Assembly (NCBI GenBank): GCA_040954595.2
Contig: CM082592.2
Coordinates: 7,613,677-7,677,676 of the forward strand
Origin: Balanoglossus misakiensis
Taxonomy: Eukaryota; Animalia; Hemichordata
Reading direction: 5' to 3'
DNA length: 64,000 nt
The notes under the pieces are model-generated. The model saw nothing but the letters and a program-made list of their open reading frames with translations, did no database searches and had not been told where the DNA came from. Positions 4,006 to 56,558 of this stretch are shown here, piece by piece. The number at the start of each line of letters is the position of its first letter. Positions within the stretch are counted from its first letter, which is position 1. The position numbers and the translations under genes were made by a program.

Positions 4006-7000
4006 CTAGATGCGGAAACTCTCCTGTTTCCCATCGATGTGTCTCAGGCGCAGATAGACGTCGGTTCCAATACCCTGCATACTCTTCAGTGTGAGGGCGC
4101 CACCGAGGTACTCTGCATATGCTCGGGAAGTCGGCAAACCAAACCCAAAGCTGGAAGTAAAAAAAATCAAAACATATAATTACACCATCTGTGTCAGGGC
4201 TCAAGTATTGTATTCTAGGCAAGACTCCATAGTGAAATGTTACAAACACGGAACACGGCAGAACCAGTACAGACATCCCCGGCCCGGAACAAACCCTGAA
4301 CTTCAACTCTAACACACTCACCCATGCATTGGTCCACCGCCTGGCCCTTGCTGATCGGAGTTCATCATCTCACCAAGCAGACCACGTGTGACGCGGTGAT
4401 CATCCAAACTACCAGAAGTGGTGAAATGGTAGTGAAACGCTCTCCCGACATTCTGGTGAGGGATTCCGTTACCACGGTCTGAAATCCTGCGAAGTTAAAC
4501 AAACTCGTTACTTTCTCAGAAATCTCACGAGGCAGCGGGTCTTGTAGTTCCGTTAGGTTCATCACTAGAGATTATTCTAACGTTACCAAAATTAACACAA
4601 TATTTCAAGTATGAATCTGCCTGAGTACATGTATTAGGACATCACATCCTGGAGTATCATTTATCTTGACCTGACATCATTCATAATATCCTTAACTCCC
4701 TCTGGCATTGATCACAGTAATTCAGACTTGCTCACCTGATGATGAAATCAGTATCATTATTAGCAATAGTGATGCTGACATCCGGAACATTCCCAGGATT
4801 ATCCAGGTTATTTTCCATGGTTGCTCTGAAAAATGGAGAGAAAGTCTGACTTTGTCAAAACCATCACAATAATCAAATTAACAACCCTGACAAGACAAAG
4901 TCTCTTTTCCTGTACAACACCATTGAAATGGTGGCCTATTCCACTCATGCATGGGGGTGGCAGAGTTAAACACCACAGCTTACCTCATACTGTTCTTGAT
5001 GATTTCTGGCAATATGTAGTCCAGTGGAACCTGAATGTATGGAAACGTCGCATTCGTGTGACCCTTCAGTTTGACTCCGGGAGCGAACCCATACTTATGC
5101 TCGCACAATCTCCTGCAGATTGAAAAGAGGTTACAATCTTGGTTACATGCCAAGATGGAGGAAAATACTTGTACTGCCTTGTACTAATCAGTCACAAGTT
5201 ATGCAGACATACTGTAGCATTCATAAATAGGCCATGAGATAAACCAATTGCCATCAAAGATATTTGGCAAGATGTGGGATTAAAATGGATCGTTATAATG
5301 ACTTACCGTCCAAAGTCCACCCAGTTGTCAATCACTTTCCTCAACTGCATCTGAGTGTTGATGATTCCGATGTAGTTGGGCTGTAAAAAACGGTCACAGT
5401 TGAAGTCACAGTTCACACACAAAGTTGAAGCAACAGTTGTGTTTTAACTACAGACATTCTGATCATTATGAATTGACCTGAACAAAGTTTATCACTAAAT
5501 GTACATTGATTCATACGCCGTATCTACTCCATGTTGTTATATCTTCAGTGTTGCAATCTTCTTCAACAATTATCAAACATAAATAACCCTTCCTCCCCCT
5601 TTTAAGTAAAATGGAACAACCCTGCAGTGGGGTTGCCTCCAAAGGAGAAAACAAACAGGGGTGAAAGGGTTATTTTTCGCTGGATTCACCTGAAATACAA
5701 GACTCTGAAGATTTCTAGGTTTGTTACTTAGACAAAACCCATGGTGCATGCAATCTCACTAAAATCACTCGCCATGAAATTATAGTATATTCTATATGCA
5801 TACACATATATCTTCACCATTGCAAGTTTTGTACTTTTTGTGGAGTGTACTTGAGATTCACTGAACTGCCCTTTTAAACTGAATCTGTCCGCGACAAACC
5901 TAGAAGCCTTCACAGAATGTGTTGAATATGTCGCTCTGGAGCCTGGGCCCGCACAAATCACACACCGAGTCCAATCCTCGTCCATCTGGTCACCACGCAC
6001 ACCAACTACACTGCAAGCCCAGACCGCCAGAGCCTGTGTCAAGATGGTGTGTTTGGGGGGAGAAAAAATGACAGCACAAAACTCTGCAAACAAACAGCAT
6101 CAAAATGAGACAAGAAAGAAGCAGCGGGATTTTAATGTGGAGGTCTGAAGATGTTTCTCGCAACTCGTCCCAGCAGTGTGTGCAGGTGTATGCAGTGTGT
6201 GCGCTGTGAGTGCAAGAGGAAAGAGAGAGAAAAAAATCTTTGTCCCAAAATTCCACCATGTACTATACAACGTTGGCTACTTTATCGCGGTCGCCTTTTG
6301 TGTCGGAGGGATATTTTTTTACAACCCACCTCACCTGTTAAATTCATGTCTGTGAAAGCAAGCAGAAAAGGAAGAAGGGTCGTCAGTTTTGTAAGGACTG
6401 CAGTTTTGTGCTTGGTGGATAACTTACCTGTTTTTTTTAATCATTTTTTACTTTTAGTTGAGAGATGTTGTCAAACCAGCTAGATCAAACTCCCATGTAT
6501 ACTATGAATTGTTTTCCCTCATGTCAACTTTGGCTAGGCTTTTGACATGAACACTATCCCTTTATCAGTAATCAGCAAACTTATAAACCTAGTTCAGTCA
6601 GAGGAAATACCTTCTTTTCTGCATCAGGTTTTAGCAAATAACACTCGCATACTGAAACAGATCCCTCCAAGTTTGTCTAGCCTGGCTCTCATCAATATCT
6701 CTCACTTACAGTGACGGAAATTGCAGAGAGAAAGAGTCTGTGAAAAGGCAGATTTGATAGTTGGAAAGACATGGAAACACAAAGCATGCATGAATGTAAT
6801 CACGCTGAGATGAATCCAGATATAAGTTGAGAAGCTTCCTACCCTATCCAGGTGTAATCCCAGATGGTGCTCTGCTAACATTCTGATGCCCAGCCTGGAC
6901 GTTAGAGTGTTATCCAGAAATTTGCGTACCATCTCTTCATCCTGTGGAGATAATGACAAATATAATTTACTTTTTAAAAAGAAAAACTCGATTTGCCATA

Positions 7001-10000
7001 TCCAGTACATGTATTTGGGAGTGCAAGGAGTCCACATGTCATCTGCGACCATCATCTTCAAGACAGTTGGATGAGATACAGCGCCCTCTATTGACAAAGC
7101 TCTGCTAATTATGGTGCATCATGGGAAATCCCTGTCATGCACCTTACCTTGATGTGCCTACGGCTTTCTTTGAAGCCCTCAGCCAGCATAGTCACTACAT
7201 CTTTGTGGTCGTCCAGAAGGCTCTTCACCAAAGTACTGTACTTCTGCTCCGTCTCAAAATCATTGACCTGGAAACCGAGCCAAAACATGCATTTTTTAAT
7301 CACATTTTTCCCCTTTCATAGGATATCATTCACTTTTACTCTCTCTCTCTCTCTCTCTGGCTGTCATTACAAAATAAAAGCTGTATATCTTACAATTGCA
7401 GCAACAAAACAAAGAAAGATAACAAGGCTCAGCTTTGTTGTTGTTTTTATTTGGCAAATCACTTGACTTACGGATTGGAATTCGGACAGCAGGTGAAAGG
7501 CTCTGATGTAAAGTTCATGGACTTGCAGTATGGTCGGGTTGCAACCAACGATAAACGGCAGACCGCGGAAAGCTGCGATGCGATGCGCCACACGCACAGG
7601 CAACTCCTTGTGCAGGAACTGGGCACTTCTCTACAAGGAAAAAACAAAACATGAAGTGCCTTTAAAACCCAGACCTACACAGGGATGACCCGAAAATGTT
7701 CTGTCTAATGTGACCCACTCATCAAAGGGTGGGGTCAGTCCGAGTCCAAAGGACTGGGTGCACTGAAAACCCCATGCCTTCTTCTGTAAAAGTCAGATTT
7801 ACAAACGAACAATACTACATTTACAATTGATGGATCTACATTGTGTCCTGAATAGGCACTAATCGGACTTGTAACCTTCAAACTTTGAATAACCAATTTA
7901 AATAGCTTCTTTTTAAATAGGCGGGGGCCGGACAAAGTACAGGGTGCGCTGAGTCCCAGTTTCCACAACAGTTTTTACTAAAACTCTTTGTAAATACCAC
8001 TTCACATTTGTATTCTATATGAAATCTCTTTTGCATGGAATGAGATCCTATACAGGCACATAATGTAAAAAGATATTATTTGCCAAGCACCATGCCGCAA
8101 GATCACAGAATGTTGATTCAAATGGAATGTACTGGGGTGAATCACCTTTCACCTTTGACTTTGTTTTGCACAGTAGGCAGATGACACATTTGAAAGAGGA
8201 CTGGTAGTAGTAGGGTTTCCCAGTAAATGCCGGCGGGGGGTTTCCCTATCATTTTACCAGAGTTTCCCTCCCCACCTCTCAAAACTCAGGCCAGGAGTTA
8301 TAATTTTGACTTGCAAATGTGACTTTTCAAATGTGGGCAGCACAGTGCGGAAATCGTTCAGCAAAGATAAGTGACGTGGAAATCAGGTCCAGGGACATCT
8401 GAGGACAGAAATACCCAGAGCCTTTATGCTAAAGATGTACCATGTTCCAAAGAGAGTCAAACAGTGGTCAAGGTTGTAAAAAAGTCATGGCCGGGTGAAA
8501 AACACGTCATTGTACTAACAAATCATTCCACTCTGTTCAACTCTGCAAAATGCCACCACCTTCAGGAGGCCCTGTAGCACAGTATGTATGGCACATTAAT
8601 ATAACCATAGGATCATCTCCATAAAAAAGGAGCAATTTTTCACTGAGACAGTTGATAGCAATCAATTTCAACAGCTTTCTCAAACCAACAAATCCCCACT
8701 ATGTCTAGTGACTGAAACAATTCTTGTAACAAACTAGCATTCAAATTCAAGAAATAAGTGTTGAATACCCAGGGGTACACTTTGCTATCACAATTTTACC
8801 AAAGACAAACCGGTTACGTAAACACACACTGGATATCAATGCATCAGTTGACTAATTTACATATAACTGTACTGAGCTGTGTGTTTTCTCTATTGACACA
8901 ATGTTAGGGCCAAGTCACTTGTACATGTGTTCATACCATGTGTATACCACCATGCTTATACAACACTCCATCTCAAGGCCCAATGCTCTGATGTAGTCCC
9001 ACCCCCCTTTGTTTCTGCTCTCCATTTCACATTGTCCAGTTTACTTTTTCACAATCGAGTGGGTTTACTAATACATTTAATTCTTGTTGGTTTACGTTTA
9101 TTGTGTGTTTACTAATCTCCTGGTATGTAGTAAGTACATTGACCACATTTGTTTCAACACTGACCAATTCTACCATTTTTATTCCATTTTCTTTGTTGTG
9201 TATCAAGTTTGCTATTTTGCTAAACTCTAGCTATAATAATAACCAAGAGTTTGATGACATAAAAACAAATTTGAGCGTATATGTTATTCTGCTTCACAAA
9301 CTTTACACTACCCAATAAATCAGTCTTTAATCTGCCTGGAAGCTCCTCCATGTGTGTCCTATCGGCTTACCCAATCTTATCAAGTCGTCTTCTTTGAAGA
9401 GTTTGCCATGCAAACAGAAATCATGCCACCTCTCCACTTTGTTGGAGGAAGTGCCGAGCACAAATAAACCTATAAAACTTGCGAGTGTAGAAAACTCGAG
9501 TGCAATGACCTGCCCTAGTTTCACACAATACATGAGCGCGTTCACGTACTCCACGCCCTGTACACGTAATACGGCTGTTAGAATTCATGCTGTCCCAATT
9601 CCTATGTGGTGATGCAACTCGTGCACATGTGAAAGACGTCAGATGTTGACTTGCATCCCAGTGCACTATGACAATATGAGAGGACAAAACGCCAAATATT
9701 GATACAGGATTATCACCATATGACTAGTCTAGTATCCTGCGGTATTTTGTTCGATTTGCTTCCAAAACTAACTTTTGGAAGCAAAGATATTAGACTACCA
9801 TATGATTGAGCTATAAGTAGACCAACATGGGGTGATGTTTGCAGGGCTTGTTGTTTGTACGTCATCGTCCTTGAGTTGGGAATATTTTTGCAGCCCCTAT
9901 TAATTTCAAAACAACACAGGGTGCAATACACAGTGACCCAGATGACAATCATTTGAGTATACACATTCATATGCGCCTTTAGTTTACAAGCAAATATGCA

Positions 10001-18400: not shown

Positions 18401-21400
18401 TTTTTTTTTGCTGGGTATTTTACAGTTTACAGCCATGCATGCATTCATTCTGTTCTTCCTGCTACTCCCCATGGATGGAAAAATCAAATGAGTGTCCGTC
18501 GGTAAGTTGAAGTGGCTGCATACCTCTTTAATGTGACAAAGGCAAATGAGAAAATGAAACTGAATTCATACTGAAACTATAAGATGTCTGTTCATGAAGT
18601 TTCATTTCCATAAAGCACTTAATTTCATTGAGTGAACTTTTGTTTTCTTACAGTGCCGTAACCAAGTGATGAGGCTCAGTCGTAACCACATCGTCAATAA
18701 CTTGGTCGAAGCGTATCTGAAAGAACATCCTGGTAAGGGACGTCCTTCACCTCTTCTGAGTTTCTGAAATTGTGCATCTCATTATCAGCACCTTGATTTT
18801 GTCATCATAGACACCCAATAAAAAGTATTTTGTACAGGCTTTTCTTCATGAAGAATTTGAGTCCAAATAATTAAGCTAAGCTGCTGTGGAAAGCACAACA
18901 ATGAGAGGCGTCGTGTGTGAGTATAATATTGACGTCACCTTTTTCTTGTCTGTCAGAAAAAAGAAGAAGTGAAGAGGAAATCAGAGAACTGAACGCCAAA
19001 AATAAAATCACTGATGACATGGTGAGTTTGAAGATACAGTCATCACACATGTTTGTCTTATTAACTGCCTGGACTACTTTAATGGCCAGCACTGCATTTA
19101 CAGAATGTAAATTTAGAACTATGGCAACTAATTTTTCTAATTTAGAAAGGTTGACTACAAATACTGACTGTCTGTGAGAAATAAATTCTTTAACAAGTAC
19201 TGGTATTTCCAGAAGGGTACTATTAATTCACATGCTTGGGGATGTTTTCAGGTTCAACCAAGACTGCGACGGCGGAATTTAGATGATTATGATGATGGTG
19301 ATTATGGTGATGATGATGATGATGACGATGATGAAGATGATGATGATGATCAAGTTGAATTGTGGGTAGCTATTTTCAAGTTGATGGAAGTGCTTTCAAA
19401 AGCCTCGAATGAATCCATTTTGGGTATTTTGGTGTTTTTGCATTGGTACCAGAGACATTTCTACTGATCTGCAAGTCCAGGTGTTATATAACCAAGTCTT
19501 TATATCAAGAAACACTGAATCAAAGTATATTTCATTCATCTCTTTCATACAATCGCAGGCCTGCAACCGGTTTTGGTGCCAGGATTATTGAAGCTGTAGG
19601 AGGATTGTTTGGTTTGGGTGTTGCAAGGTAAATTTCTGCAGTTGTTGTGCTGATGCAGTATTTGGTGTCTTTTCAGTATTAATGTATTCAATATCCATTT
19701 TCGTGTTGCATGGAGTTTATCGTGAAACTGTGTGTTTTGCTCACGGCCAGACCCCCACCAACGATCTGTAGGCAGTGCCCTGGGAATGTCGCTGAAACTA
19801 CAGCAACCGCTGCAGCAACTGCGACGGCTGCAACGGAATCTGCAGCATCAAGATCTGATGATGCGGGTCCAACTGGAGCCAATGCAAGTACCAGCACTGC
19901 AGCAAGCCCCGGCAGAGCTGCAGCGCCCGACCAGAAGCCGTCCACATCCACGGACGCAGCAGAACGCGATGCTGAGCCTTCAACGTCGACTGGGCTGACC
20001 GGAACTGGTCCACCACCATCCGCAACAAACACAAGGACCACTCCAGACGGCGAAATTGTCAAGATGCCCGACCCGCCCGACTACACCTGCGGTCAAGGCG
20101 AAGTCCACCTGATGTGTTTGTGCTGCAAGCAGGCCATGCCAGACAGGAGAACGGCAGCCGTTACAGACCCAGACATCCCTCCACAACAGTGTAAGTGCCA
20201 CGTAAAATTAGGAGGCTCAGGATACACACACACTTCCATTGTAATTGTGGCTAAGTCTGCATAAGTGACTGCATGTGTACCTTGAAGGGAAGTCTACATT
20301 CTCCAATTTTCAACATTTTACCACCAGACACTGTTGGCAAATCTGACATCATAGTACTGAAATATTTTAAATTTCTTAAAATGATATCAATTTCACAGTC
20401 AATTGTGGGATTTCAATTTTTTCTCTTCTGTTTTTTTTTTTATGCCAGGTGATATTTGTTACAGAGGGTACTGTCACATGTACTGGGGCTGCAAGAGAGT
20501 TGACTGTTATGGCTGTTTGAATCATTTCCGTGGTAAAGATCGGTCTTCGTGCCCCATCTCCACTATTTTTTTTGATGATCTGTTTATCAGCATTTCCCAC
20601 TGTAGCCTGTTGAAACATGAATCCAATATCTGTTGTTATTTTTAAACCAGCATGTACAGTCATCACTATCTTTTCTCTTTCAGACATGAATTTCGGGAAA
20701 AAATCACTAACCAGTGTCATTAACGATAACCCGTATGAATCGGAAATTTTTCGGGTAAGTGTGAATCAGGTCTTTTTTTAGTGGTGTTGTTTAGATGCTG
20801 TTTAGTGAAAGTTGCTGTGTACTGTAAAACTTCTATTAGAAGTGACAGCATAAATTTTAGAGATATACTGTTCTTGAAAAATGAAGGTTATCTATGGCTG
20901 TGTAATGAAAATTTAACTAGGTTCCCCCAAAAAAACAAACTGTTATCTTTATCTTACTCTTTTTAAACAGAATTACATGGAAGACAAGAATTTGTCAGTA
21001 AAGGATGTTTTACGGGAGTGTCTAGTTAGGCTCGACAGAGGTGAATATGTCAGCACAGGTAAGGAATCCCTAAATTGGTAGGGCTGCTCCAACACGTACC
21101 TAGAGTAATTTTGAGTCATGTTCACTTGATTGTTTGTGTGTGTGCATTCCTGTGTGTATGTGTGAGTGTGTGTTTGTGTGCCTGTGAACTTTCATTACCT
21201 CAAGTTCTGTTGGATTTAAATTGTTCTTGATAGTGATTTTTTACTTGTGGGCAATATTTCTTTTCCAGATGCGCACAATTTCAGAGGTAGAAAAGGGTCA
21301 GATGTGAGGATATGCTATCCGTGCGGGCTGCGGAATTTCAAAGAGCTGGCGTATCAGTTCAGGAGAGATATCCCTAGGAGTGAACTTCCAGGTGATTTGA

Positions 21401-33462: not shown

Positions 33463-35100
33463 ATGCTGAATGTAACCATGAGTTATGAAGACTTGGTGGA
33501 TGGTCCCGGGCCGCCATACTGGGCACTTCATTCCAAAATCGTTCTCACTCTGACCCTAGTTTTGATAATCATCGCCAGCTTGGTTGGCAACGGGATGGTG
33601 ATTTTAGTCGTGCTGTTGAACAAGAGGATGAAGACGAGAACTAATGTGTTCATTATGAGCCTGGCCATCGCAGATATCGGCCTCACTGGAATCTGCATGC
33701 CTTTCTCGTTGATCACCGTCGTCATGGGAGACTGGATCTTCAGCGACACCCTGTGCTACTTTGACGCGTTTGCCAACGCTTTTTTCTTCATTGCGTCTCT
33801 GCAGAGTCTGATGTACATCGCAATTTTCAAATTCTTCTGCATCATGCATCCGTTGAGGCGCATCATAACGCGGAGGAGGGTGATCCTGATGACCGTCGTC
33901 ATATGGATTGCGGCGTTGTTCTGCGCCAGCGGGCCGCTCTTCGGGTGGACCGAGAACGAATACAAACCGGCCGCCACCCAGTGCGGTCCTGCCTACCCGC
34001 AGACAATCAAGCAGAAGTCACACGCGATCAGCATTGCAATGATCGGCTACGTGATTCCGCTGGCGACCATGGCAATCTGCTACAGCAGGATGTTCTACGC
34101 CATCCACCTGCACTCCAAGCGACTGCAGCAGAACACGAGCATGACGCCCCTGGCGATCTCCAACACGCAGAAACGGACAACGATGACCATGTTCATCATC
34201 ATGGCAGCTTTCCTGCTGTGCTGGACACCCTATTTCATCTACGCCATCTGGGCCATATCGCAAGACTACCACGGCATCCCGCTGTGGTTTAACTCATTTG
34301 CATACTGGTGCGGGTATGCAAATTCTGCCGTGAATCCCATTGTTTACGCCTGGAGGTACGATTCCTACAAAGTGGCTTTCAAAAGACTTTTGCTGTGCCA
34401 GAATGGTGCACCTCTCTTATCAAGTAAGTCTTTGCTCACGTGGTAGAGAAAATAATTTATTTAAAAAAAAAATTTTTAGCTTACGAGAAATAGAAATTTT
34501 ATATAACCACAGAATTGATAGTTAAATAGGCATTTTGTGATTTTAATTTGCAATTCCAAGGTTTTTCATTGTGATTAAATTTGTTTTAATCTTTGGCTTG
34601 CAGGCAGCACTCCAATGACGGGCTCACCCGTTTCTTCAAGAAAGTCCAGTTTAGCCATGACGCCGCAACTGGTTGCCAAGTTCAATAAGGTCACCACCGC
34701 GGCCACTATGGAAAGCATGCCACTGGGCAGCCCAATCGTCAACATCAAGAAAATCCAGCCACCGCCGTTGCCAGATCTTCCGTCCTCCAACGGAATTCAC
34801 ACCCATTTGGGAAATTGCGGAGCAGGGAATAAGACGGACCGCACCCAGCACCTGGACAGGGATTGGAGCAAAAGCGAGGCGGATTTCGACGGCGTGTTCG
34901 TCAACGCCAGTGATGGATTGATGGGCGGGAAGACCAGTCGGAGGAAGAGCATCGTCAAATTCATCAGGACCCGCTTCAAGAGCACACCGGTGGGAGACGA
35001 GCTGAAGGATGAGTCCGAGGATGAGGACGAAGTGCTGAAGATCGGGTCTTGTCCAACTAGTTTAGAATACACAACAGCCAATGATGGACAGAGCTGCTGA
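33463..35100 (+). CDS. Orphan rhodopsin-family (class A) GPCR, 2 coding exons, about 485 aa
   Basis: Exons 33463-34423 and 34604-35100 join in phase 1. Seven hydrophobic segments with GN (TM1), LAIAD (TM2), TM3 Cys, W4.50, CWTPY (TM6), NPIVY (TM7) and a long Ser/Thr-rich tail. Confidence 0.93.
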
Positions 35101-35925
35101 TTGATAAACGGACCACTGAGACATATTTGTGTGACTTGCGACGTTTCACAGCAACTTGTAATAACCACAGGAGCGCGTCAAATGCCATTGCTAATTCATC
35201 AGCCGTGAATGAGATGTAGTTGCCAACATTCCCACTTCCCCCCTCATGCATAAACTTGATCAGCAAGTTATGAGACAAAAAAATACATCTACCACAAAGA
35301 TCAGACGATGGTATTTATTAGGCCATTAACAAAATCTATAAAGCGTTACAATTTTACTTTTTAATAACTCACAATTACACTCCAGTACATCACACATTTA
35401 ATCAGTTTCAATGTCATCTTTATAAGTAAGGATATTGCAAACTACAAGATTAACTTGCTATACATTGTTATTATAATCCTGAGATCCAGGTTTAATCATT
35501 CAAGACCTTGTCAAAATTTTCTGTCTCCATCATGGAAATAAAAATATTTGCAACTGAACATGCTGTAAATTTTTTCTGGTCACATAATATTGCAAGGAAC
35601 CAGGTTAGTGACTGGAAAAAAGATTTTCAAAAATGGCAGCCCCAAGCAGGAAGGATATAGGAAGGAAATTTTCCATTGACCTTAATTGTACTTTCGCATA
35701 TCATTTCTCATGAGCCTAATTTACTGGCCTCCAGCCATTTTCTGCACTTTCTGTGAAAATGTCTGCTGTAAGGAATTGTGCGCTTTTAGTTTCTCTGCAA
35801 ATATACACTGTACTCTTGATTCATGTGAAGAGACACAGATAAGGTATTTTTTCTCTTTGTCTGTGATAGTATCATGGTGGTGATAGGATTAAATCAATCC
35901 AAACCCTACAGGGGGGTTTCCAAAT

Positions 35926-36398
35926 TCACTGCACCAACTGGCCTCCCAGAGCTCGGAGAAGGAGCGAATAAACGGCAAATGTGACTGCATTGACTGGGAA
36001 TCCACGGATGCAGTTGATTCCCAATCCGGTCCAGAACACCCGGAATCCACCCGACTTGTAACTGTCGGCAAAGCAGTGCAGCACGCCGCGATACATCTGA
36101 CCCCTCACACCGTCGGCCTGCAGCCGGTTTTTGACGACGTCAAGCGGATTGATTGCGGCCCAAGAGGAGGTACCCGCTACCCCTCCCGCTAGCAACAGCA
36201 CCCAGGTGCTCGGGTGACGCCTTCCTTCGGGAGTCAATCGAGCGCACAGAACTCCGTAGGTCAGGAAGTATATTCCCGATGCCAGTACATCCCGGAATGC
36301 CATGACTGGGAGACCCCGGTAGCAGCCCTTTATTCCCTCAGCTCTGAAGATGCTGGTAATACAATGGATTGGCCCGCTGTAATTTGTGAACGCCTGCC
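35926..36398 (-). CDS. Alternative terminal exon C of the SLC25 carrier (isoform 296 aa)
   Basis: Acceptor ttccttacatttcag|GG in phase 1, open 473 nt to TGA; close paralogue of exon A. AATAAA on - at 35314-35319. Confidence 0.85.
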
Positions 36399-37128
36399 CT
36401 GAAATGTAAGGAAATTTCAAATTCTAGATCAGGTGTATGACAGTATGGAGAGGACATTTCAAGACCTTGTGCAGATCTTGAAGTTCTACAAGGAAACAAA
36501 GAATCATATTTATTGAATCGGGAGATTGAATGTCAGTGTAGCCCTTCCACCACCATGGTTCGGTCCCAATCCATTGTGCACAGCAAATAGGGACTGATGT
36601 TATTGTAAGATGGATGAATAACAAGGACACGGAATTGTATTGCAATGGAATATTTATTCATATTTTAATATGAAATCTGTCCATCACAGACTGGAAATTC
36701 TTGGATTAGTGATAGACCCAATTGAAAATTCAACACTACTCTCTCTCTGGGAATTGGTATGTCTTTTGTAAATTCTGAGAACACTTGAAAAATTCACAAA
36801 TTAGTTACACACCACTATAAAGTCGGCCATAGCATTTGTCTCAATTTAAAAAATACTGACTTTAAGTACTGTAGATTGCATTCTGGTGCACCCACACCTG
36901 TGATTATTCATTAACATTCAGTGTGTCGAAGACTGAGCTATGCTCCTTTCTTTTGAAGACATTTTGCATATAATATAGTGAGTGATTGGGCTGTATGGTT
37001 TGACCATGAATAAGCCTTAGGCATTGTTACTGCAGCTTCAAAAGTTAATGCCATAGGCTTCAATGATTTGTTTGGACTAGCTACCATGCAAATGAAAATA
37101 AGTAAAAGGCGAAAAATGATACAACTCC

Positions 37129-37625
37129 TCATTTGGCAGCTGCCCTGCTGTGTTCCCCGAACGCGCGTAAAGTGAGTGAGTACACAGTGAAGGTGATGGC
37201 ACTGACTGGGAAGTCGCCCAGAGAATTGATGGAGAGGCCGGTGCAGAACGCTCGGACGCCCCCGGTCCTGTAAGTGTCCACGACACAGTGCCACAAGTTG
37301 CGGTATTTGTGTTCGTGTACTCCGTCGGCTTGCATTTTGCTTTTGATGACGTCGACGGGCGTGATCGACCCCCAGGCGAAAATCCCCGCCGTCCCTCCGG
37401 CGACAAAGAGGGCCCAGGGGCTAGGCTGGCTGTGTCCCGACAGAGTGAGTTCCCGGCACAGCAGTTCGTAGAGCAGGAAGTATATGCCGCATGCGGGAAC
37501 ATCCCGGGCGGCCGTGGACAGCATTCCCCGGAAGAGGCCGCGTGGTCCCTCATTCTGGATCACTTTGTTGACACAGTGGATCGGCCCTCTGTAATTCGGG
37601 AAGTGTCCTATTGAAGAAGTCTGAC
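37129..37625 (-). CDS. Alternative terminal exon B of the SLC25 carrier (isoform 304 aa)
   Basis: Acceptor ttggtttcag|GT in phase 1, open 497 nt to TGA; encodes H4-H6 (RDVP, TPVDVIKSKMQ, INSLGDFPVSA). AATAAA on - at 36653-36658. Confidence 0.85.
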
Positions 37626-37830
37626 CTGAAACCAACAAGGGCAAATGATAAGTAGTAAATGCCTGCTTGTTTGTTTGTGCCTGTACTGATGGTCAAACTT
37701 TTGCAAAAAGACATTGTACACAGATTCATCCTAAACGTCAATCTGTGCCTACAAGCGCAATATATAACACAACAACCACTACTTCATGGTGTATTGCATG
37801 AAGCAATACTCTGCATTTATAATATAATAT

Positions 37831-37963
37831 CAAAGTGTAGGATATAGAATATAGTCGACCGCAGTTCCTGTCTTCTGAATGTTCTTATTATCACGTTTTT
37901 TTTAACAAGGAACATTCAGAAGATGGGAACTGCGGTCGAGCATATTTTATATTCTACACTTTG
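37831..37963. repeat. Long inverted repeat / fold-back (arms of about 57 bp)
   Basis: caaagtgtaggatatagaatatagtcgaccgcagttcctgtcttctgaatgttc is matched by the reverse complement of gaacattcagaagatgggaactgcggtcgagcatattttatattctacactttg, with few mismatches. Confidence 0.9.
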
Positions 37964-39086
37964 TCATGCGTTGTATGTGCTCCCATCTTCAACTGAAGCA
38001 GCTACTGTGTGCAGTGACTGTTGGACTGAATTTCCTCTTTATAATATTATGAGCTGAATAGCTCACTCCTCCATACAACTAGTATGACTTGGCAATGTCA
38101 TGATCATGTTGGATGCTGTGTCTTTCATTGCAACATTCTGTTTTCTGGCTTTACCATAGAGGGGGCACTGCTAGAGATGTTAAACAAAGGGTTTCATGAC
38201 AGAATCCTGTTCATTAGACCACTAGTGAGTTTGTGTGTGTAATGGGACCGTGATCCTTCCAGACAAAGTCAAAACTTTGACAGATATATTATAATAAACA
38301 ATTTTATTTCACAACACTAATCAACAAACTTTACATGAATATTAGTAGGTAAAGGTTGTCTTGGCTAAGATCGGATTGATCAGGGAACAGTTTGGAACCC
38401 TTTAAAAACAATTACATAAACTGCCTAAAATCTGTTCAAAATATCCTTCACAAAACATAAGAATTCTGCACATCTTTATAAAAGATGATGGATAATCACT
38501 AAAACTTTTTAAGACTGAGTTAAGGTGCTTTTGACACAATATTAATTAGACATTGTTACCAATGTATTATACATATCATTAGCCGTTAATTTCAAAAAAT
38601 GATAAATTTACGCTATTAAACCATTACTACTCTCATAATGAGCCAGCAGACAATCTTTGACATTTTCTTGATCTTACAAAGAATCACTTGTTTGTGCGTC
38701 ACATTATTTGAAGTCCGAACAGTCTGCCAGTCTTACTGGCATGTCCATTTGGTTGATAATGTTTAATGAATTTTGATTCTATATAAAAATAAAAGTCGCA
38801 TATTTCTTTAGTACGTTGCAGACTTAAATTTCTTAAGGTTATTTATAGTGCCTTTTTAATAATATTGCACAAGTCAAAGGTGTTAGAGGCACATAGATTC
38901 AATTGTTGAGTTACATTGGTAATAATGTAAGATCCTTTCAGTTTTAGATTTGAAATTATGTTGCTGATATGTAATATTAGTGTGCTGGAGGAGAAATTAC
39001 TAGTAATACAGTTAACTTTTCATATGGCCACTCCCCCTTGCTGTGGGACAGAGGCTTCATTCTGGACTATTCAACCCTGCAGTGTT

Positions 39087-41597
39087 TTACTGCGAAGCAA
39101 CCTGTCCGCCCAGGGCCCGGAGAAGTAGTGAGTAGACGGCAAACGTGACCGCATTCACCGGAAACCCCCGGATACAGTTGATGGACACGCCCGTCCAAAA
39201 CACGCGTAGTCCGCCCGTCCGGTAGCTGTCCGCGAAACAGTGCAGCACTCCGCGGTACCTCGCGCTGGCCACGCCGTCGGCCTGCAGTCGGCTCTTGACG
39301 ACGTCCAGGGGGTTGATGACGACCCAGGAGGCCGACCCGGCCAACCCTCCGGCCAGAAGCAACGCCAGAGTACCCGGGTGGCTCTTGCCTTCCGGCGTGA
39401 AATGCCGGCACAGCACCTCGTAGCCCAGGAAGTAGATGCCAAACGCCGGCGTGTCTCGGAATACCATCACAGGCAGACCCCTGTAGCAGCCGCGGATTCC
39501 TTCGGCTTTGAAGATGCTTGCGATGCAGTGAACTGGCCCGCTGTATCTTGGTGTAACTTCGCCGAGGGGAGACGCACCTGAAACAAAATTGTGTACAACA
39601 GACTAGCACTCCAGATTATCTACAGCCACTGGACACCAACTGAGATGAAATCACACGTCAAACAAAGGACCTAGACAGTATTAAAACTGAGGCATAGTGC
39701 AAGAACAAAATTACCTTATGTGGATTAGGCTGTGGAAATCACAAGTAACCGGTTGTGAATTCCAACAAAACTGCCGGGGTTACCGTAATCTTCACCCGGA
39801 GATGGTGCCCCATTGATATTCGTGTGCTGATCTCTTAAGGATGTACGTGCACTACAAGTGCATGGAATTTGTCTCTTCCCATAGGGACTTTTTTTCACAG
39901 GGAGTCAGTGTGGAGTAATCTTTGAAAGGCTGGGGTGTGGTGTGGTGTGGTGTACAAGTGCCATATGAAATACTGGCAATGTATTGTACAAAATAACATC
40001 GCATTGCACTTATGCAGAGTGCCGCGCACTGCAATGGTTGATGTGTGGTAAAGCATGATCATAGAGATCTTTACATCTTTACATGTATATGTTTGTACAG
40101 CTATCTTAACATCACTTTACGTGGTACCAACTTGAAATGAGAACCCTCTTATAAAATGTAACCCCCCCCCTCCCCATTTCCCTCTGTAGAGGTCCTAATT
40201 TACCATATCAAACAAGGAAATACATCTAGGAGATATAAACATGCATATCAGCATTCCTGAACAAGTTCTAGCGCACAAAGATTATAGTCTTAGCAACAAG
40301 TCTTCCTGAAGTTATTGTACATAGTGCCAAAAGATTGAACACTGGTCCAGCATCAGCATCCAGGCATGCAATACGCACACAGGGATAAATTTCTCTGAAG
40401 GTTTGTTTGGGAAAGCAACCAGGTTGTGAAATACACACACGCAATACAACACACGTTCATTTACCTCTGCCGTGAGTCTGCATCTGCAGGCGAATCTTGA
40501 CCAGCTCCACAGGACATGCAATGCTGAGCTGAACGAAACCAGCTACAGACCCGGCAATGAAGATGTCCGTCTTGGTGGCGGGTTTGTTGGCTGCCTCGTG
40601 CCGCCACGCTGAAAGTCTGTGGAGGGTGTTGCCATAGACACCGAAAATGACCGCATTCTGGACACAAATTGTGGCCAGGGGGAAACCCATTCCTTTGTAA
40701 AAGCCAAAAATCTGCAAGTGTGCGGAGAAAATGGTGTGAACAGTAAGAAAACATGTAATTATTGTGCTATTGGAATACCACAACATGTAATAACATTTCT
40801 GACTATTTACGGTAGGAATGACATGACATTGGTTGTTATGTAGAGAAGTACTTACCGATTCATGACGTATTGTTTTATAAATGCAGTCGAAAATGCCCTT
40901 ATATTGCACTGTGCCAAGGCTCTGTGCTTGCAGTCTGACCTGCAAGGAAAGCGACATTTTTAAATGTACAGGGGTGCATGCAGCTAAGTTGACGGAAATG
41001 GTTTCACATTTGGCCACTCCTCGCAACAAAGGAGTAAAGTGAAATGGTCATGTACTGATGGGCTCACATCTGTACATGACCATTGTGTCATATTATCATA
41101 AAACCCACCTTAATTGTATCCAGTGGATGCCCTACTATGATACCAGCTCCTCCTGCAAATGGAGAAAGAAATGGCATTGAATGGAATTTAATATTATGAT
41201 GAAAATATCAATATTATTTTCGGGGCAATTTTCCCATTTTTAGTCAAAAACTCGCTTTTTCAGTTGCGTTTGCTTTGCTTTATAATTTCTTAACAATTTG
41301 GCTTGGCTTGCAACTTGTATGCGTGCATCAATAATCCTACCCTACCCCCCCCCCCCCCCCATAAAGCAAATGGTTCTCCCCTTCCCAGAATGCAACTGAC
41401 GGGACAGGCTGGAAAATGGGTCCCTCTTCACGTACACGTATCCCTGACTGTCCAGATCATTGTTATCTGGACTTTAGCGAAACCTCCCCGGGTTTAGGCC
41501 GTCGGGATAACAGGCTGCAAATCAGGAAAAGAGATGAGCTCTCTTTTTACTTACCGCCCACAAGCCCTGCGATGAAATCTGCCCACAAAAACACCAT
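39087..41597 (-). CDS. SLC25A45: Mitochondrial carrier, SLC25A45/A48/A29 group, isoform A (shared exons 1-4 plus terminal exon A, 302 aa)
   Basis: Shared exons 41555-41597, 41109-41152, 40856-40939 and 40465-40711 (DFIAG, GHPLDTIKVRLQ, GFYKGMGFPL, CPVELVKIRLQ; ends phase 1), then exon A 39087-39577 (RD, NPLDVVKSRLQ, INCIRGFPVNAVTF). Exact orthologue within the A45/A48/A29 group is uncertain. Confidence 0.85.
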
Positions 41598-41777
41598 TTT
41601 CTCCGGGATTCGTTACCTCGTCTGGGCCAAATGCATAGCGTGTACAACACACAACGGGCAGTGTATGGTTCGATCGCGATCGCGTTGTTCCACGACGCCA
41701 CATCAACTCTGTGATCATGCAGTCGACATTGACGGGCTACGGGCCGGTGTCTGGACAGGTGTTGCACTCACCTTTGC

Positions 41778-41882
41778 CCTTATATATCTACCTAAAATTC
41801 ATTAATAAATGACGACGTGACACAACACACATGTGTTAGCGCGCCGCCAGTGGTGGGAAAGACAGCAAAAGCTGTCACGTGA
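41778..41882 (-). promoter_or_regulatory. SLC25 gene core promoter (TATA box and E-box)
   Basis: TATATAAG on - at about 41779-41786; GTCACGTGA E-box at about 41874-41882; about 190-280 bp upstream of the ATG. Confidence 0.5.
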
Positions 41883-42678: not shown

Positions 42679-44607
42679 TCACTGTCCCATGGCTGACAGA
42701 CTCTTGTCCATAAATTTCCTTTTCACAAAGCACATCCACCACTGAAAAAGAAGAAGTATACAGCGTAATTAATTAATGGTTATTTCCTGCAGAAGCTCAA
42801 AACTTTTATGCTCTATAAACTTTCAGTAGTATAAAAAACATTGTAAACTCTACCTTGGAAGGTTTGTCTGTAGTTTTGTCAAAGACCTTGTCGCACATTC
42901 TAAGTCCTGTCTCTTGACGTATCTGCTGTAGATAGTTTCTCATTGCATCTGAAAGAAAGAAAACTGACATTTATCCATTTGTTTTGTCCAAATCATCAGA
43001 TTCAAGGACTCTGTAGAATTTGTGATGCCCATGTGGTTCAAGCTTGCAATGATGTCTAGGGCTTAATGACTGGGGAGCAAGGCAGGAAAACAGGCAGGTA
43101 TGGTACATACTATAGATATATTCAGTTTTTATAGCATTAACAATCATTACAGCCAGTCTACTATCTACATCACACTGGCCAGACAGACAGTCTGATGGTT
43201 AACTACATTGATGTTCCCAGAATATTGAACAATTGAACAAAGATGTGAACACAGTCTGCAAGATTACATTACCTTGTTCTGCTCTGCCGTTGGGTGTAAC
43301 ATAAACCGCATTTAATGGAAATCCAGGTTCTCCGGGAATATCCCACTTGTTTATGGCCAGAGTGTGCATTTCCTTTTCGCCCGCATTCTTTGACTGACAC
43401 TGTAAAAAATCCACATTTTGTCATTTCACCATTTACACTGTAAAGTATTCAAAGCAAATGTGGGAAGTTTGACGCTATACTTGACATGTCTATATCAAGA
43501 AGGTAATGGAGAATGCTGTTATATGGAATACAAACCCTCTGTAACTTTTTCAAACATTCCGTGATGTAAAGAGTGATGTAGATGAGAGTTCTATCGGCGT
43601 GAGTCTGCAAACAGAAACAAGGGAGATTTTAAAAATACATAACAATGTACACTGTATAATGGTTTATCATGTCTCACACAGAATAATTACGTCCAACAAA
43701 GTCTTTCCTGTACACATGTAATTGCCAATGAACAATATCTTCCAAATAATTAACAACCAACACTTACCTTCACTTCATAATTTTTAAAGAAGACATTGGC
43801 CTTGAAATAATGAATGGCTTCATCGATGATGTCAGACTCAGTGGCTGTAAAAAGTAGTAGTTCTGATTTATATATTAGCTCAAAAACCTGCAAAAATTTC
43901 ATGATTTCCACAACCAACAAAACACAGTACTTTTGATCAGAAATCGTGAACACTATATGTCTATTTGAAGCCCGCACTCTGAATATGAACCCACCTTTAG
44001 GTGCTGGTCCTCTAAACTGAGTTCTCAGTGGTAAAAGCGCCATATTACCCAAACTCTGGGGCGCATCGAAAGATGAATGATATGCCTACAAAATAAATCA
44101 GTACAGGTATGTCAGGTGAAATGCACATTATAAGTTTCACATAAAACAAGTGACAATAGTCAACATCATTCTGCATTTGCCAAATTATAATATTTGTAAT
44201 TAGTGAGTGGTGTATGTCACCATGTCTTGAACTTTGTAGTCACTCCCCCTTCCCCTGACCCAGCTGCCCCACCCACCATCCAAGTAGCTTTGCAATTCCG
44301 ATCTATGAAAGGGCACCTTTACAAAAAGCACCAAACCCCTGGGGAACGAATGATATGTTGGTGCACCGCACAGAACCTTTCCCCTGCCATTAGACATGCA
44401 CTGTGAACGGACATCACATCATATTCTCTAACTCGGAAGTTGAATGTACATTTGGAGGTTTCATCAATGCAGGAAGTTAGTCAGAAATAACCTGTCATAG
44501 GCGATCTGGTCTATCGATATTGTTCTTGCCATAAAATACAGTAAAGGGTAACTTAATGCACTCATCAGTCACGAAAAATTGTACGTCAAACGATAATTTA
44601 CCGGCAT
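42679..44607 (-). CDS. ARPC3: Actin-related protein 2/3 complex subunit 3 (p21-Arc)
   Basis: MP| micro coding exon 44602-44607, then AYHSSF...[88 protein letters not shown]; stop at 42679-42681. Confidence 0.97.
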
Positions 44608-54022: not shown

Positions 54023-56558
54023 ATGTTTCAACAAGCTGGGTACCAAGGTGACAGGATTGTGATGGACGAATATAACAGTGATTTGCACTTGTGTGCAGCG
54101 CCTGACGGTGTGACAGGCTGGGATCTGCACGACAAAGGATTCCAGTATATGTGGGCCGGAGGTCGCGCTACACACGGAGTACGACAAGGCAGGGTAAGTG
54201 TATCTGGGACGTCCAATGAATGATAATCAGATATTGATACATATAGTCAATCGAGACGTTGCTTAAGTTACATAGTATATAGTGATTTAGATACAGGCCA
54301 ATCAAATTGGTAAATTACATCAGTTCTTTTAATTTGATCAATGAAATGCAAAATATTGCCTAGACTACAAAACTTGACATTTATTAGCTTTTCACTTGCA
54401 GGTATGCTTTGAGTGTACTGTGATTGAGTATCAAAATGTGGATATGCCAGAAACAGAGAAAGTCCCCCACGTACTGCGAGTTGGATGGTCTACACACAAC
54501 ACCGGCTTTGACCTGGGAGAAACCAGTCTGTCATATGGGTTTGGTGGGACGGGTAAAATCTCGTCGAACAACAAATTCATGGACTATGGCCAGCCGTTCG
54601 GAGTTGGGGACACCATCACCTGCTACTTAGACCTGGACGCACGTCCAGCTGCCATCTTTTATGCAAAGAATGGACAGTACTTGGGAGTGGCGTTCAAACC
54701 GGGCTCGGAAATAAGTGGACAGACTTTGTATCCTCACGTGAACCTCAAGAACGTTCGGTTTGAGATAAACTTTGGGGATAGACCCCCGAGGTTTCAAATC
54801 ACGCAGGGATTTCAAATGCTGCAGTGGTTGCCGCCAAACGCTCTTATCCAGGCTCCGTGCGAGTCAAATCGGAAAGAGGATCACGAAATTTTGATGATGA
54901 TCGGCTTGCCCGGAAGTGGGAAGACTACTTGGGCCGAGCAGTACACCAAGCAGCATCCCGATAAGAAATACTATATCTTGGGAACAAATGCTATCATAGA
55001 CAAAATGAAAGTGATGGGCCTTAAAAGGCAGAAGAACTACCATGGTCGGTGGGACCAGCTCATAAAACAGTCCACAGACTGCCTGAACCAAACGTTCAAA
55101 CTTGCCGAGAGAAAAGTGAGAAATTACATCTTGGATCAGACCAATGTGTACTTCACTGCGAGAAGACGGAAAATGAACAATTTCAGGGGGTTCAAGCGAA
55201 TCGCGATCGTCCTTGTCAACACTAAAGAAGAACTTGACAGGAGAATTGAAAAGAGGACAAGAGAGGAAGGCAAAGTTGTCCCAGAGTCGGCTGTGAAGGA
55301 AATGATGGCAAATTTCTCCCTCCCGGAAGTCGGAGACTGCTTTGATGAAGTTCGATATGTTGAGGAAGATGAGCAAAAGTCCAAGGAGCTTGTCGACATG
55401 TACAAGAAAGAAGGACTTGAGTTCAAGAACCAGGAGAAGAAAAGATCTGCCGAAGGAGAAAACGAGCCTCCAAGTAAAAGATTTAGCTCAGGAGGTCCGC
55501 GAGGTCCGCCAGGGGGGTTTATGCCACAAAGAGGTGGGCCGGATGGATTTCCCCCCAGAGGTGGCCCAGATGGATTCCCTCCCAGAGGTGGCCCAGATAG
55601 ATTTTCTCCCAGAGGGCCGCCACCAATGGGAGCAAGGGGTCCACCAGGAGGTTACCCGGGAAGAAGTACAGAATTAGACTTTCAGCGAGATCGTGATTAC
55701 CAGCGGGGTCCACCTGGGAATGGTTATCAACGGGGTCCATCACCGGGGAGCGATTACAAACAGGGGCCAATGGGGAGCGATTACCAGCGGGGTGCACCTG
55801 GGGGCGACTATAAACAGGGTCCAATGGGGAGCAGTTACCAGCGGGGTCCACCAGGAGGTGGCTACGGCAGGGGGGATGCACCGCCCCCACGAGACAATTA
55901 CGGACAAGCGTATGGCGACTTCAAGCGGATTAAGGAGGAACCGTCGCAGCCAGGGTATGGCCAAGGGTGGGACAGTCAGTCTCAGCAGGGAGGGTACGGC
56001 GGGTATGCCTCACAGATGTCGTCATCCGCATATCAAGGTGGTCCTGGTGCTGGTGGTGGCAGCATGCAGCAGCAGACAGGCACTTACGGAGCATCGTCAT
56101 ACGGCAGAGATTCATCCAGCAGAAGTTACGAAGGCCAAGGCTACGGCGCCACCATCAAAACAGAACCTGGTCAAGGTCAGTACGGTGCCACTGCTGGAGG
56201 AACAGCCGGCGCTTGCTCACAACCGTACGGGGCATCGTCCGGAGGCTACAGCCAAGGCAGGCAACAATCAGGATACGGGTCGTACTCCCAACCAAGCCAA
56301 GGGTACGGCAGTCAAGCGAGCCAGGGCTACCAGCAAGGCCAGCAGGGCTATTCTTCTGGCCAGTCGCAGGGTTACGCCAGCCAGCCAAGTCAGGGATATC
56401 CCAGCCAGCCAAGCCAAGGCTACTCCAGCCAGCCAGCCCAGGGCTACCCTAGTCAACCCCAAGGGTACTCCAGCCAGCAAGGGCAAGGTTATTCCGGCCA
56501 GAGTGGGTATGGAAGTGCTGGGTACGGAGGTGGATATCAACAAGGCCCTAAGTATTGA
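54023..56558 (+). CDS. HNRNPUL1: hnRNP U / hnRNP UL1-like protein (SPRY, P-loop AAA/PNK-like, RGG and SYGQ low-complexity tail), 2 coding exons, about 775 aa
   Basis: Exons 54023-54193 and 54402-56558 join in phase 0. SPRY: FQYMWAGGRATHGV, LRVGWS, SYGFGGTG. Walker A GLPGSGKT, NYILDQTNVY, VPESAVKEM. No SAP domain seen. Which paralogue it is remains uncertain. Confidence 0.88.

Follow-up and report, generated by a model that had tools for sequence, protein, structure and literature searches.

The gene analysed here lies on the minus strand of a 64,000-nucleotide (nt) stretch of the Balanoglossus misakiensis genome (contig CM082592.2, positions 7,613,677 to 7,677,676), hereafter the window, and consists of four shared 5' exons followed by three tandem last exons, A, B, and C. 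Its sequence places it among the mitochondrial carriers of the SLC25A45/47/48 type. The shared half and the three last exons, chosen by splicing and polyadenylation, would probably yield three carriers, of which B has a different predicted substrate, and use of more than one of the last exons is very likely. A stronger reading, in which a splice and poly(A) switch swaps one half of the binding site and so turns the gene from an amino acid-type carrier (A and C) to a carrier of carboxylate-free or more cationic substrates (B), is somewhat doubtful and is put forward tentatively.

Gene structure

The shared exons total 418 nt, encode helices H1-H3, end in phase 1, and have GT/AG ends throughout. 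Exons A, B, and C are paralogous, are arranged in tandem in one phase, and each encode H4-H6; each is preceded by a pyrimidine tract ending in TTTCAG and followed, 470-780 nt beyond its end, by an AATAAA. When the exons were joined according to their coordinates (Table 1), open frames of 302, 304, and 296 amino acids (aa) were obtained, each with a single terminal stop. The gene has tandem duplicated last exons of one phase, each with its own stop and poly(A) signal, and common 5' exons. This arrangement had been set out in a preliminary description of the window, and the joining of the exons bore out the coordinates, lengths, frames, acceptors, stops, and AATAAA of A, B, and C given there, together with the number, length, helix content, and end phase of the 5' exons. 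Matches to PF00153 scored 120-127 bits in A, B, and C and 44 bits in exon 4 (cutoff 22.3), and the PX[DE]XX[KR] signature was found in H1, H3, and H5, both within the shared exons and within each of the three last exons.

In tblastn searches of the 64 kb window with the three isoforms, carrier sequence was confined to the seven exons, and the remaining matches had E values of at least 0.17. No other carrier 5' exon was found in the window by this search, between A, B, and C or elsewhere, as had been claimed for the intervals between them. No fourth last exon was found in the window when the second halves of four related Ptychodera flava proteins (X1-X4, below) were used as queries, which matched A, B, C, and, as weak internal-repeat matches, the shared exons.

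The DNA of A, B, and C is 64-73% identical and the intervening spacers are unrelated, so the three exons are neither haplotypes nor chance resemblances. An assembly artefact, which the preliminary description had named as a possible refutation, or a haplotype duplication was rejected on the grounds that synonymous divergence (dS) exceeds 1, that the spacers are unrelated, and that the same design is present in the gene models of an independent species, P. flava. Stand-alone half-carriers made from B or C were also rejected, as no Met is present in the frames upstream of their acceptors.

The exon 4 donor (40465) would be joined to the acceptor of A, B, or C, and the transcript would end at the poly(A) signal of the chosen exon; use of B or C would require that both the A acceptor and the A poly(A) signal be skipped. 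Coupling of splicing to polyadenylation is known from 3' cassette arrays (PMC6191721, PMC8373072).

Orthologues in other hemichordates

Protein searches for relatives gave 16 matches, the best 120 of 624 matches, and the best 120 of 162 matches. Among those listed, the closest were acorn-worm SLC25A45-like proteins, and the closest named family was SLC25A45/47/48. Four of the acorn-worm proteins, annotated in P. flava as SLC25A45-like RefSeq isoforms X1-X4 (XP_070572161-165), have a letter-identical first half of 138 residues and four different second halves, with the break at the position that corresponds to the end of window exon 4. From the isoform names, the consecutive accessions, and the identical prefix, we infer that X1-X4 derive from one gene. 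The first half is 90% identical between the window and P. flava. The second half encoded by B is 69% identical to X1, 60% to X2, and approximately 50% to the A-type rows, and that encoded by A is 69-70% identical to X3 and X4; X1 and X2 are accordingly referred to as B-type and X3 and X4 as A-type. The orthologue resembles the window gene in its break point and in having both types of second half, but has four variable halves rather than three, and X2 has no counterpart in the window.

Separate gene copies, unlike X1-X4, differ in the first half. A second P. flava gene copy (XP_070572167-170; rows P0018, P0134, and P0135) has an A-type second half and a Glu to Gly change in the H3 signature motif, and may be decaying. 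Five SLC25A45-like whole-gene copies with differing first halves were found in Glandiceps talaboti, all five with Arg at contact point III; rows P0022-P0024 of this species have changes around H4 (Pro at isoform A position 176 and, in one, R-E at contact point II). The best 120 of 624 matches included a single Saccoglossus protein, and among the best 120 of 162 matches no half-length hemichordate transcript fragments were found beyond one P. flava model. Two acorn-worm lineages appear to have expanded the same carrier differently, by last-exon duplication in the window species and P. flava and by whole-gene duplication in Glandiceps.

Contact points and predicted substrates

Human numbering was transferred by means of the 264-aa human SLC25A45 isoform, with 13 of 13 checked positions showing the expected residue. 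Residues were counted in 244 homologous proteins, which are mostly vertebrate and not independent. Contact point I, a Thr, belongs to the shared half. An Arg-Asp pair (R-D) occupies contact point II in A, B, C, and X1-X4, and the proposal that this point is swapped between isoforms was not upheld. At contact point III, which corresponds to human SLC25A45 R268, A, C, X3, and X4 have Arg, as opposed to the Gly of B, X1, and X2, so the proposed swap of this point holds for B and fails for A and C. Arg occupies the column in 240 of the 244 homologues, the others being two Gly (X1 and X2) and two gaps. In B and X1 the Gly is followed by Asp. At ten positions the three B-type rows agree on a residue that none of the 11 remaining hemichordate rows has. 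The B-type rows also have Lys for R236 (Arg in 241/244), X2 is without the H5 Trp (present in 241 of the 242 other rows with a residue there), and exon C has Leu for Pro183 in H4 (Pro in 237/244). The pocket residues I66, N70, Q113, and K124 of human SLC25A45 are kept in the acorn-worm gene.

AlphaFold modeling of the B-type P. flava X1, using a 93-row alignment, gave a complete six-helix carrier with a predicted local distance difference test (pLDDT) score of 89, in which the exon join falls in a loop of low confidence that connects H3 to the matrix helix after it. The best structural matches of this model were UCP1 and the ADP/ATP carrier (AAC), with an E value of 1e-10.

In the human carrier, the R268A substitution abolished SLC25A45-dependent function (PMC12594208), and in a preprint based on docking and simulations the carboxylate of trimethyllysine was placed on Q113, R173, D174, and R268 and the trimethyl group on residues of H1-H3 (PMC12724661). 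According to reviews, contact point II sets the substrate class and contact point I the fine choice, and contact point III is nearly always positive (PMC12410006, PMC6769469); R[DE] at contact point II is the rule for the cationic amino-acid cluster (PMC10027655). As A and C retain all contact points, they would likely carry the same class of cationic amino acid-like, ancestral substrate and differ in kinetics or in control through the 3' untranslated region (UTR). Isoform B lacks the H6 Arg that holds the substrate carboxylate in the human simulations and gains an Asp at the site in H6 that matches the Asp of R-D in H4, a shift of two charge units, with the side-chain pocket in H1-H3 unchanged across the three isoforms. 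It would most likely carry a related molecule that is more cationic or free of a carboxylate.

Phylogeny and selection

A tree of the second halves was built from 20 rows. The clade of B, X1, and X2 was supported at 100/99, and in approximately unbiased (AU) tests a constrained A+B+C clade and an X1-X4 clade were rejected (p-AU 3e-11 and 8e-37, respectively). Because B groups with X1 and X2 and the A+B+C clade is rejected, the A/B split predates the split between P. flava and the window species. A grouped with C at 89/93 (not a starred node), and X3 and X4 grouped with the second P. flava gene at 95/91; the sequences suggest separate later A-type duplications, or conversion. The acorn-worm proteins formed their own clade relative to the vertebrate 45/47/48 rows, and the trees do not pair the gene with SLC25A45 alone.

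Ratios of nonsynonymous to synonymous divergence (dN/dS), a check suggested in the preliminary description, were estimated with the Nei-Gojobori method (NG86). They were 0.10 for A-C (bootstrap 0.05-0.18), 0.30 for A-B (0.16-0.49), and 0.32 for B-C (0.17-0.47), all with upper limits below 0.5, and the last exons are under purifying selection. Pairwise dS among them is 1.2-1.5, near saturation, and the GC content at third codon positions (GC3) is 0.64-0.76, as compared with a spacer GC content of 0.35-0.42. Under neutrality, approximately 1% of simulated exons still had no stop after 0.5 substitutions per site, as compared with approximately 45% after 0.05, so only a recent loss of B or C is still compatible with the open frames. 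Relative-rate tests showed no significant acceleration of C over A (5 of 5 tests, p 0.24-1.0). The second halves diverge faster (B-X1 70% and A-X3 74% identity) than the constant half (89%), and among 389 non-hemichordate pairs with first halves 85-95% identical there was none with second halves at or below 72% (minimum 75%), a comparison in which the pairs are not independent and the orthology of A and X3 is unsure. The constant-plus-variable-half design proposed earlier is supported by X1-X4 and by purifying selection as far as constant H1-H3 and alternative H4-H6 are concerned, with the splice joins themselves being predicted.

Evaluation of alternative explanations

Several observations weigh against three functional carriers with a distinct substrate for B. 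Isoform B could be weak or inactive, as loss of R268 inactivates the human carrier, and the cavity-facing role of its Asp is argued from pseudo-symmetry; X2 has Ala, not Asp, after the Gly at contact point III. A and C have all contact points in common. At the positions of V69, L73, L117, and F120 of human SLC25A45, the constant half has other residues. B evolved faster than A (27 vs 11 unique changes, p 0.014; p 0.014-0.041 in 3 of 3 tests), with a branch dN of 0.30 and dS of 0.46 from a rough three-way split. Pairwise dN/dS is an average over a long history, with which recent silencing of B or C would be compatible. X1-X4 are automatic gene models, for which the RefSeq pipeline uses RNA and protein alignments as well as ab initio signals (PMC12605758); the accessible passages of the P. 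flava genome paper name only slc25a21 among such carriers (PMC11175523).

It is conceivable, although unlikely, that all three isoforms are made and that B, which transports poorly or not at all, is retained for some other function, such as transcript diversion, a substrate-free leak, or binding only. The effect of R268A in the human carrier (PMC12594208), the double role of contact points as hinges (PMC12410006), the R236 to Lys change of the B-type rows, and the missing H5 Trp of X2 are in keeping with such an isoform. However, B and X1 remain approximately 70% identical and have in common the matrix signature motif, R-D, and the Gly-Asp pair; the glutamate carriers GC1 and GC2 are active without Arg at contact point III (PMC6769469); and a conserved protein would be unneeded for a transcript sink. 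Also to be weighed is whether the isoforms, B included, move one substrate and are distinguished by nothing more than rate, tissue, or 3' UTR control. Between A and C this reading is the favored one, and for the whole set it draws on the identical contact point II in all exons, the common H1-H3 pocket, and the mostly conservative changes made by human tandem-exon swaps (PMC9741552), but B reverses charge at an otherwise invariant site and this is kept in two species, which renders the explanation rather improbable for B.

The least probable explanation is that only A is used, with B and C being either remnants of a recent silencing or separate genes with 5' exons elsewhere that RefSeq merged in P. 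flava. Open frames do outlast short neutral periods, C has the Pro183 to Leu change and an AATAAA within its coding sequence, and whole-gene copies exist in P. flava (the second copy) and Glandiceps (five). Against these points stand the absence of any other carrier 5' exon in the 64 kb window, the intact acceptors, stops, and AATAAA of B and C, the relative-rate results for C, and the letter-identical first half of X1-X4, whereas separate copies differ there.

Comparison with known systems

A 2026 analysis proposes that new SLC25 substrates arose through recombination of segments, including in the ancestor of SLC25A45/47/48 (PMC13385207). The predicted isoforms are natural chimeras built on a common first half, in which the contribution of H4-H6 to specificity would be directly assayable, and B is an example of a carrier conserved in nature although it lacks the near-invariant contact point III Arg. 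The switch from an amino acid-type to a more cationic or carboxylate-free substrate, if real, would put the contact-point model to the test through a naturally occurring exchange of halves that ptychoderid-like acorn worms have preserved.

Human SLC25A45 (trimethyllysine and dimethylarginine), SLC25A48 (choline), and SLC25A47 share R-D at contact point II and Arg at contact point III with A and C; SLC25A45 differs from the window gene at four pocket residues, and B is without the R268 equivalent. Isoforms made from duplicated homologous exons, as here, are known for the SLC25A3 phosphate carrier (A/B) and SLC25A24 (PMC8373072 supplement), but the SLC25A3 swap is internal (approximately 41 residues) and the SLC25A24 swap affects an N-terminal regulatory segment, whereas the window gene exchanges approximately 160 residues and two contact points. 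In the human tandem-exon catalogue 77 of 236 events are C-terminal (PMC8373072); SLC25A3 and SLC25A24 are its only SLC25 rows and neither is C-terminal (PMC8373072 supplement), and the supplement of a companion paper has SLC25A3 as the sole SLC25. Constant 5' exons with tandem 3' cassettes, as in the window gene, are found in Drosophila PGRP-LC, CG42235, and Pip, where the cassettes are multi-exon and docking/selector-controlled (PMC6191721). The window cassettes are single exons, and in a scan of this single genome no shared docking site beat shuffles (best shared site -22.1 kcal/mol, equalled by 6 of 30). Glandiceps provides a case in another acorn-worm family in which the same carrier was expanded, but as whole-gene copies with differing first halves. 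In the Drosophila pair sesB/Ant2 there is presumably no coding half in common. These tandem SLC25 duplicates have one promoter and mRNAs formed by alternative splicing and, unlike the window gene, are described as two duplicated genes (PMC7504413).

The literature searched, in which subscription papers were mostly outside the scope, described no SLC25 gene whose C-terminal half is exchangeable and did not mention the gene analysed here. The earlier statement that the design is undescribed for an SLC25 gene stands within that literature. In general, last exons duplicated in tandem form a class that is already known. The design is already present in the automatic RefSeq models, apparently without comment.

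Table 1. Features of the carrier gene, in window coordinates
Feature	Position	Strand	Remarks
Shared coding exon 1 (ATG, H1 start)	41555..41597	minus	43 nt; matches P. flava N-terminus
Shared exon 2 (H1 signature motif)	41109..41152	minus	44 nt
Shared exon 3 (matrix helix h12)	40856..40939	minus	84 nt
Shared exon 4 (H2 with contact point I, H3)	40465..40711	minus	247 nt; common phase-1 donor at end
Last exon A (h34, H4-H6; R-D at II, Arg at III)	39087..39577	minus	302-aa isoform
Last exon B (R-D at II; Gly-Asp replacing Arg-Gly at III)	37129..37625	minus	304-aa isoform
Last exon C (contact points as in A; Pro183 to Leu in H4)	35926..36398	minus	296-aa isoform
AATAAA, putative poly(A) signal of A	38303..38308	minus	sequence
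AATAAA, putative poly(A) signal of B	36653..36658	minus	sequence
AATAAA, putative poly(A) signal of C	35314..35319	minus	sequence
TATATAA, TATA-like element, putative single promoter	41780..41786	minus	sequence only

Neighboring genes and non-coding features

Two extra AATAAA were found on the minus strand, at 36329-36334 within the coding sequence of exon C and at 36509-36514 just upstream of the C acceptor, and are possible further ends for B transcripts. Several potential RNA pairings were recorded. A perfect inverted repeat of 15 nt (41591-41605 with 40723-40737) pairs the region around the start codon with the acceptor tract of exon 4, for which this is the best partner (-25.9 kcal/mol, as compared with -19.7 for the next site). 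The B acceptor (37626-37655) pairs best with the proximal 3' UTR of A (approximately 39055-39026; -25.8 kcal/mol, next site -23.3). A 17-nt complement between the A acceptor tract (39579-39595) and the A AATAAA region (38295-38311) could hide exon A; this pairing (-15.2 kcal/mol) was discarded, as the eight best partners of A among 1268 windows were stronger (-19.7 to -18.4). A hairpin of 133 nt with 54-nt arms (37831-37963), approximately 200 nt upstream of the B acceptor, is probably a small mobile element.

The carrier gene is flanked upstream by ARPC3 (42680-44085, minus strand) and downstream by a convergent rhodopsin-family G protein-coupled receptor (GPCR). The TATATAA lies approximately 340 nt downstream of the ARPC3 AATAAA (42140 and 42127). 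The GPCR gene (PF00001; 33460-35540, plus strand) has the end of its second exon at 35100 and its first plus-strand AATAAA at 35537, so that the 3' UTRs of the GPCR gene and of exon C would run antisense to each other over approximately 240 nt. Elsewhere in the window, an exon of the branched-chain ketoacid dehydrogenase/pyruvate dehydrogenase (BCKDH/PDH)-kinase type was located at 6702-7118 (minus strand) and a zf-CRD exon, scoring below the cutoff, at 19683-20264 (plus strand). A single frame of 726 aa at 54378-56558 (plus strand) contains SPRY and AAA_33 domains and an RGG/Gln-rich tail, and is taken by us to be hnRNP U-like.

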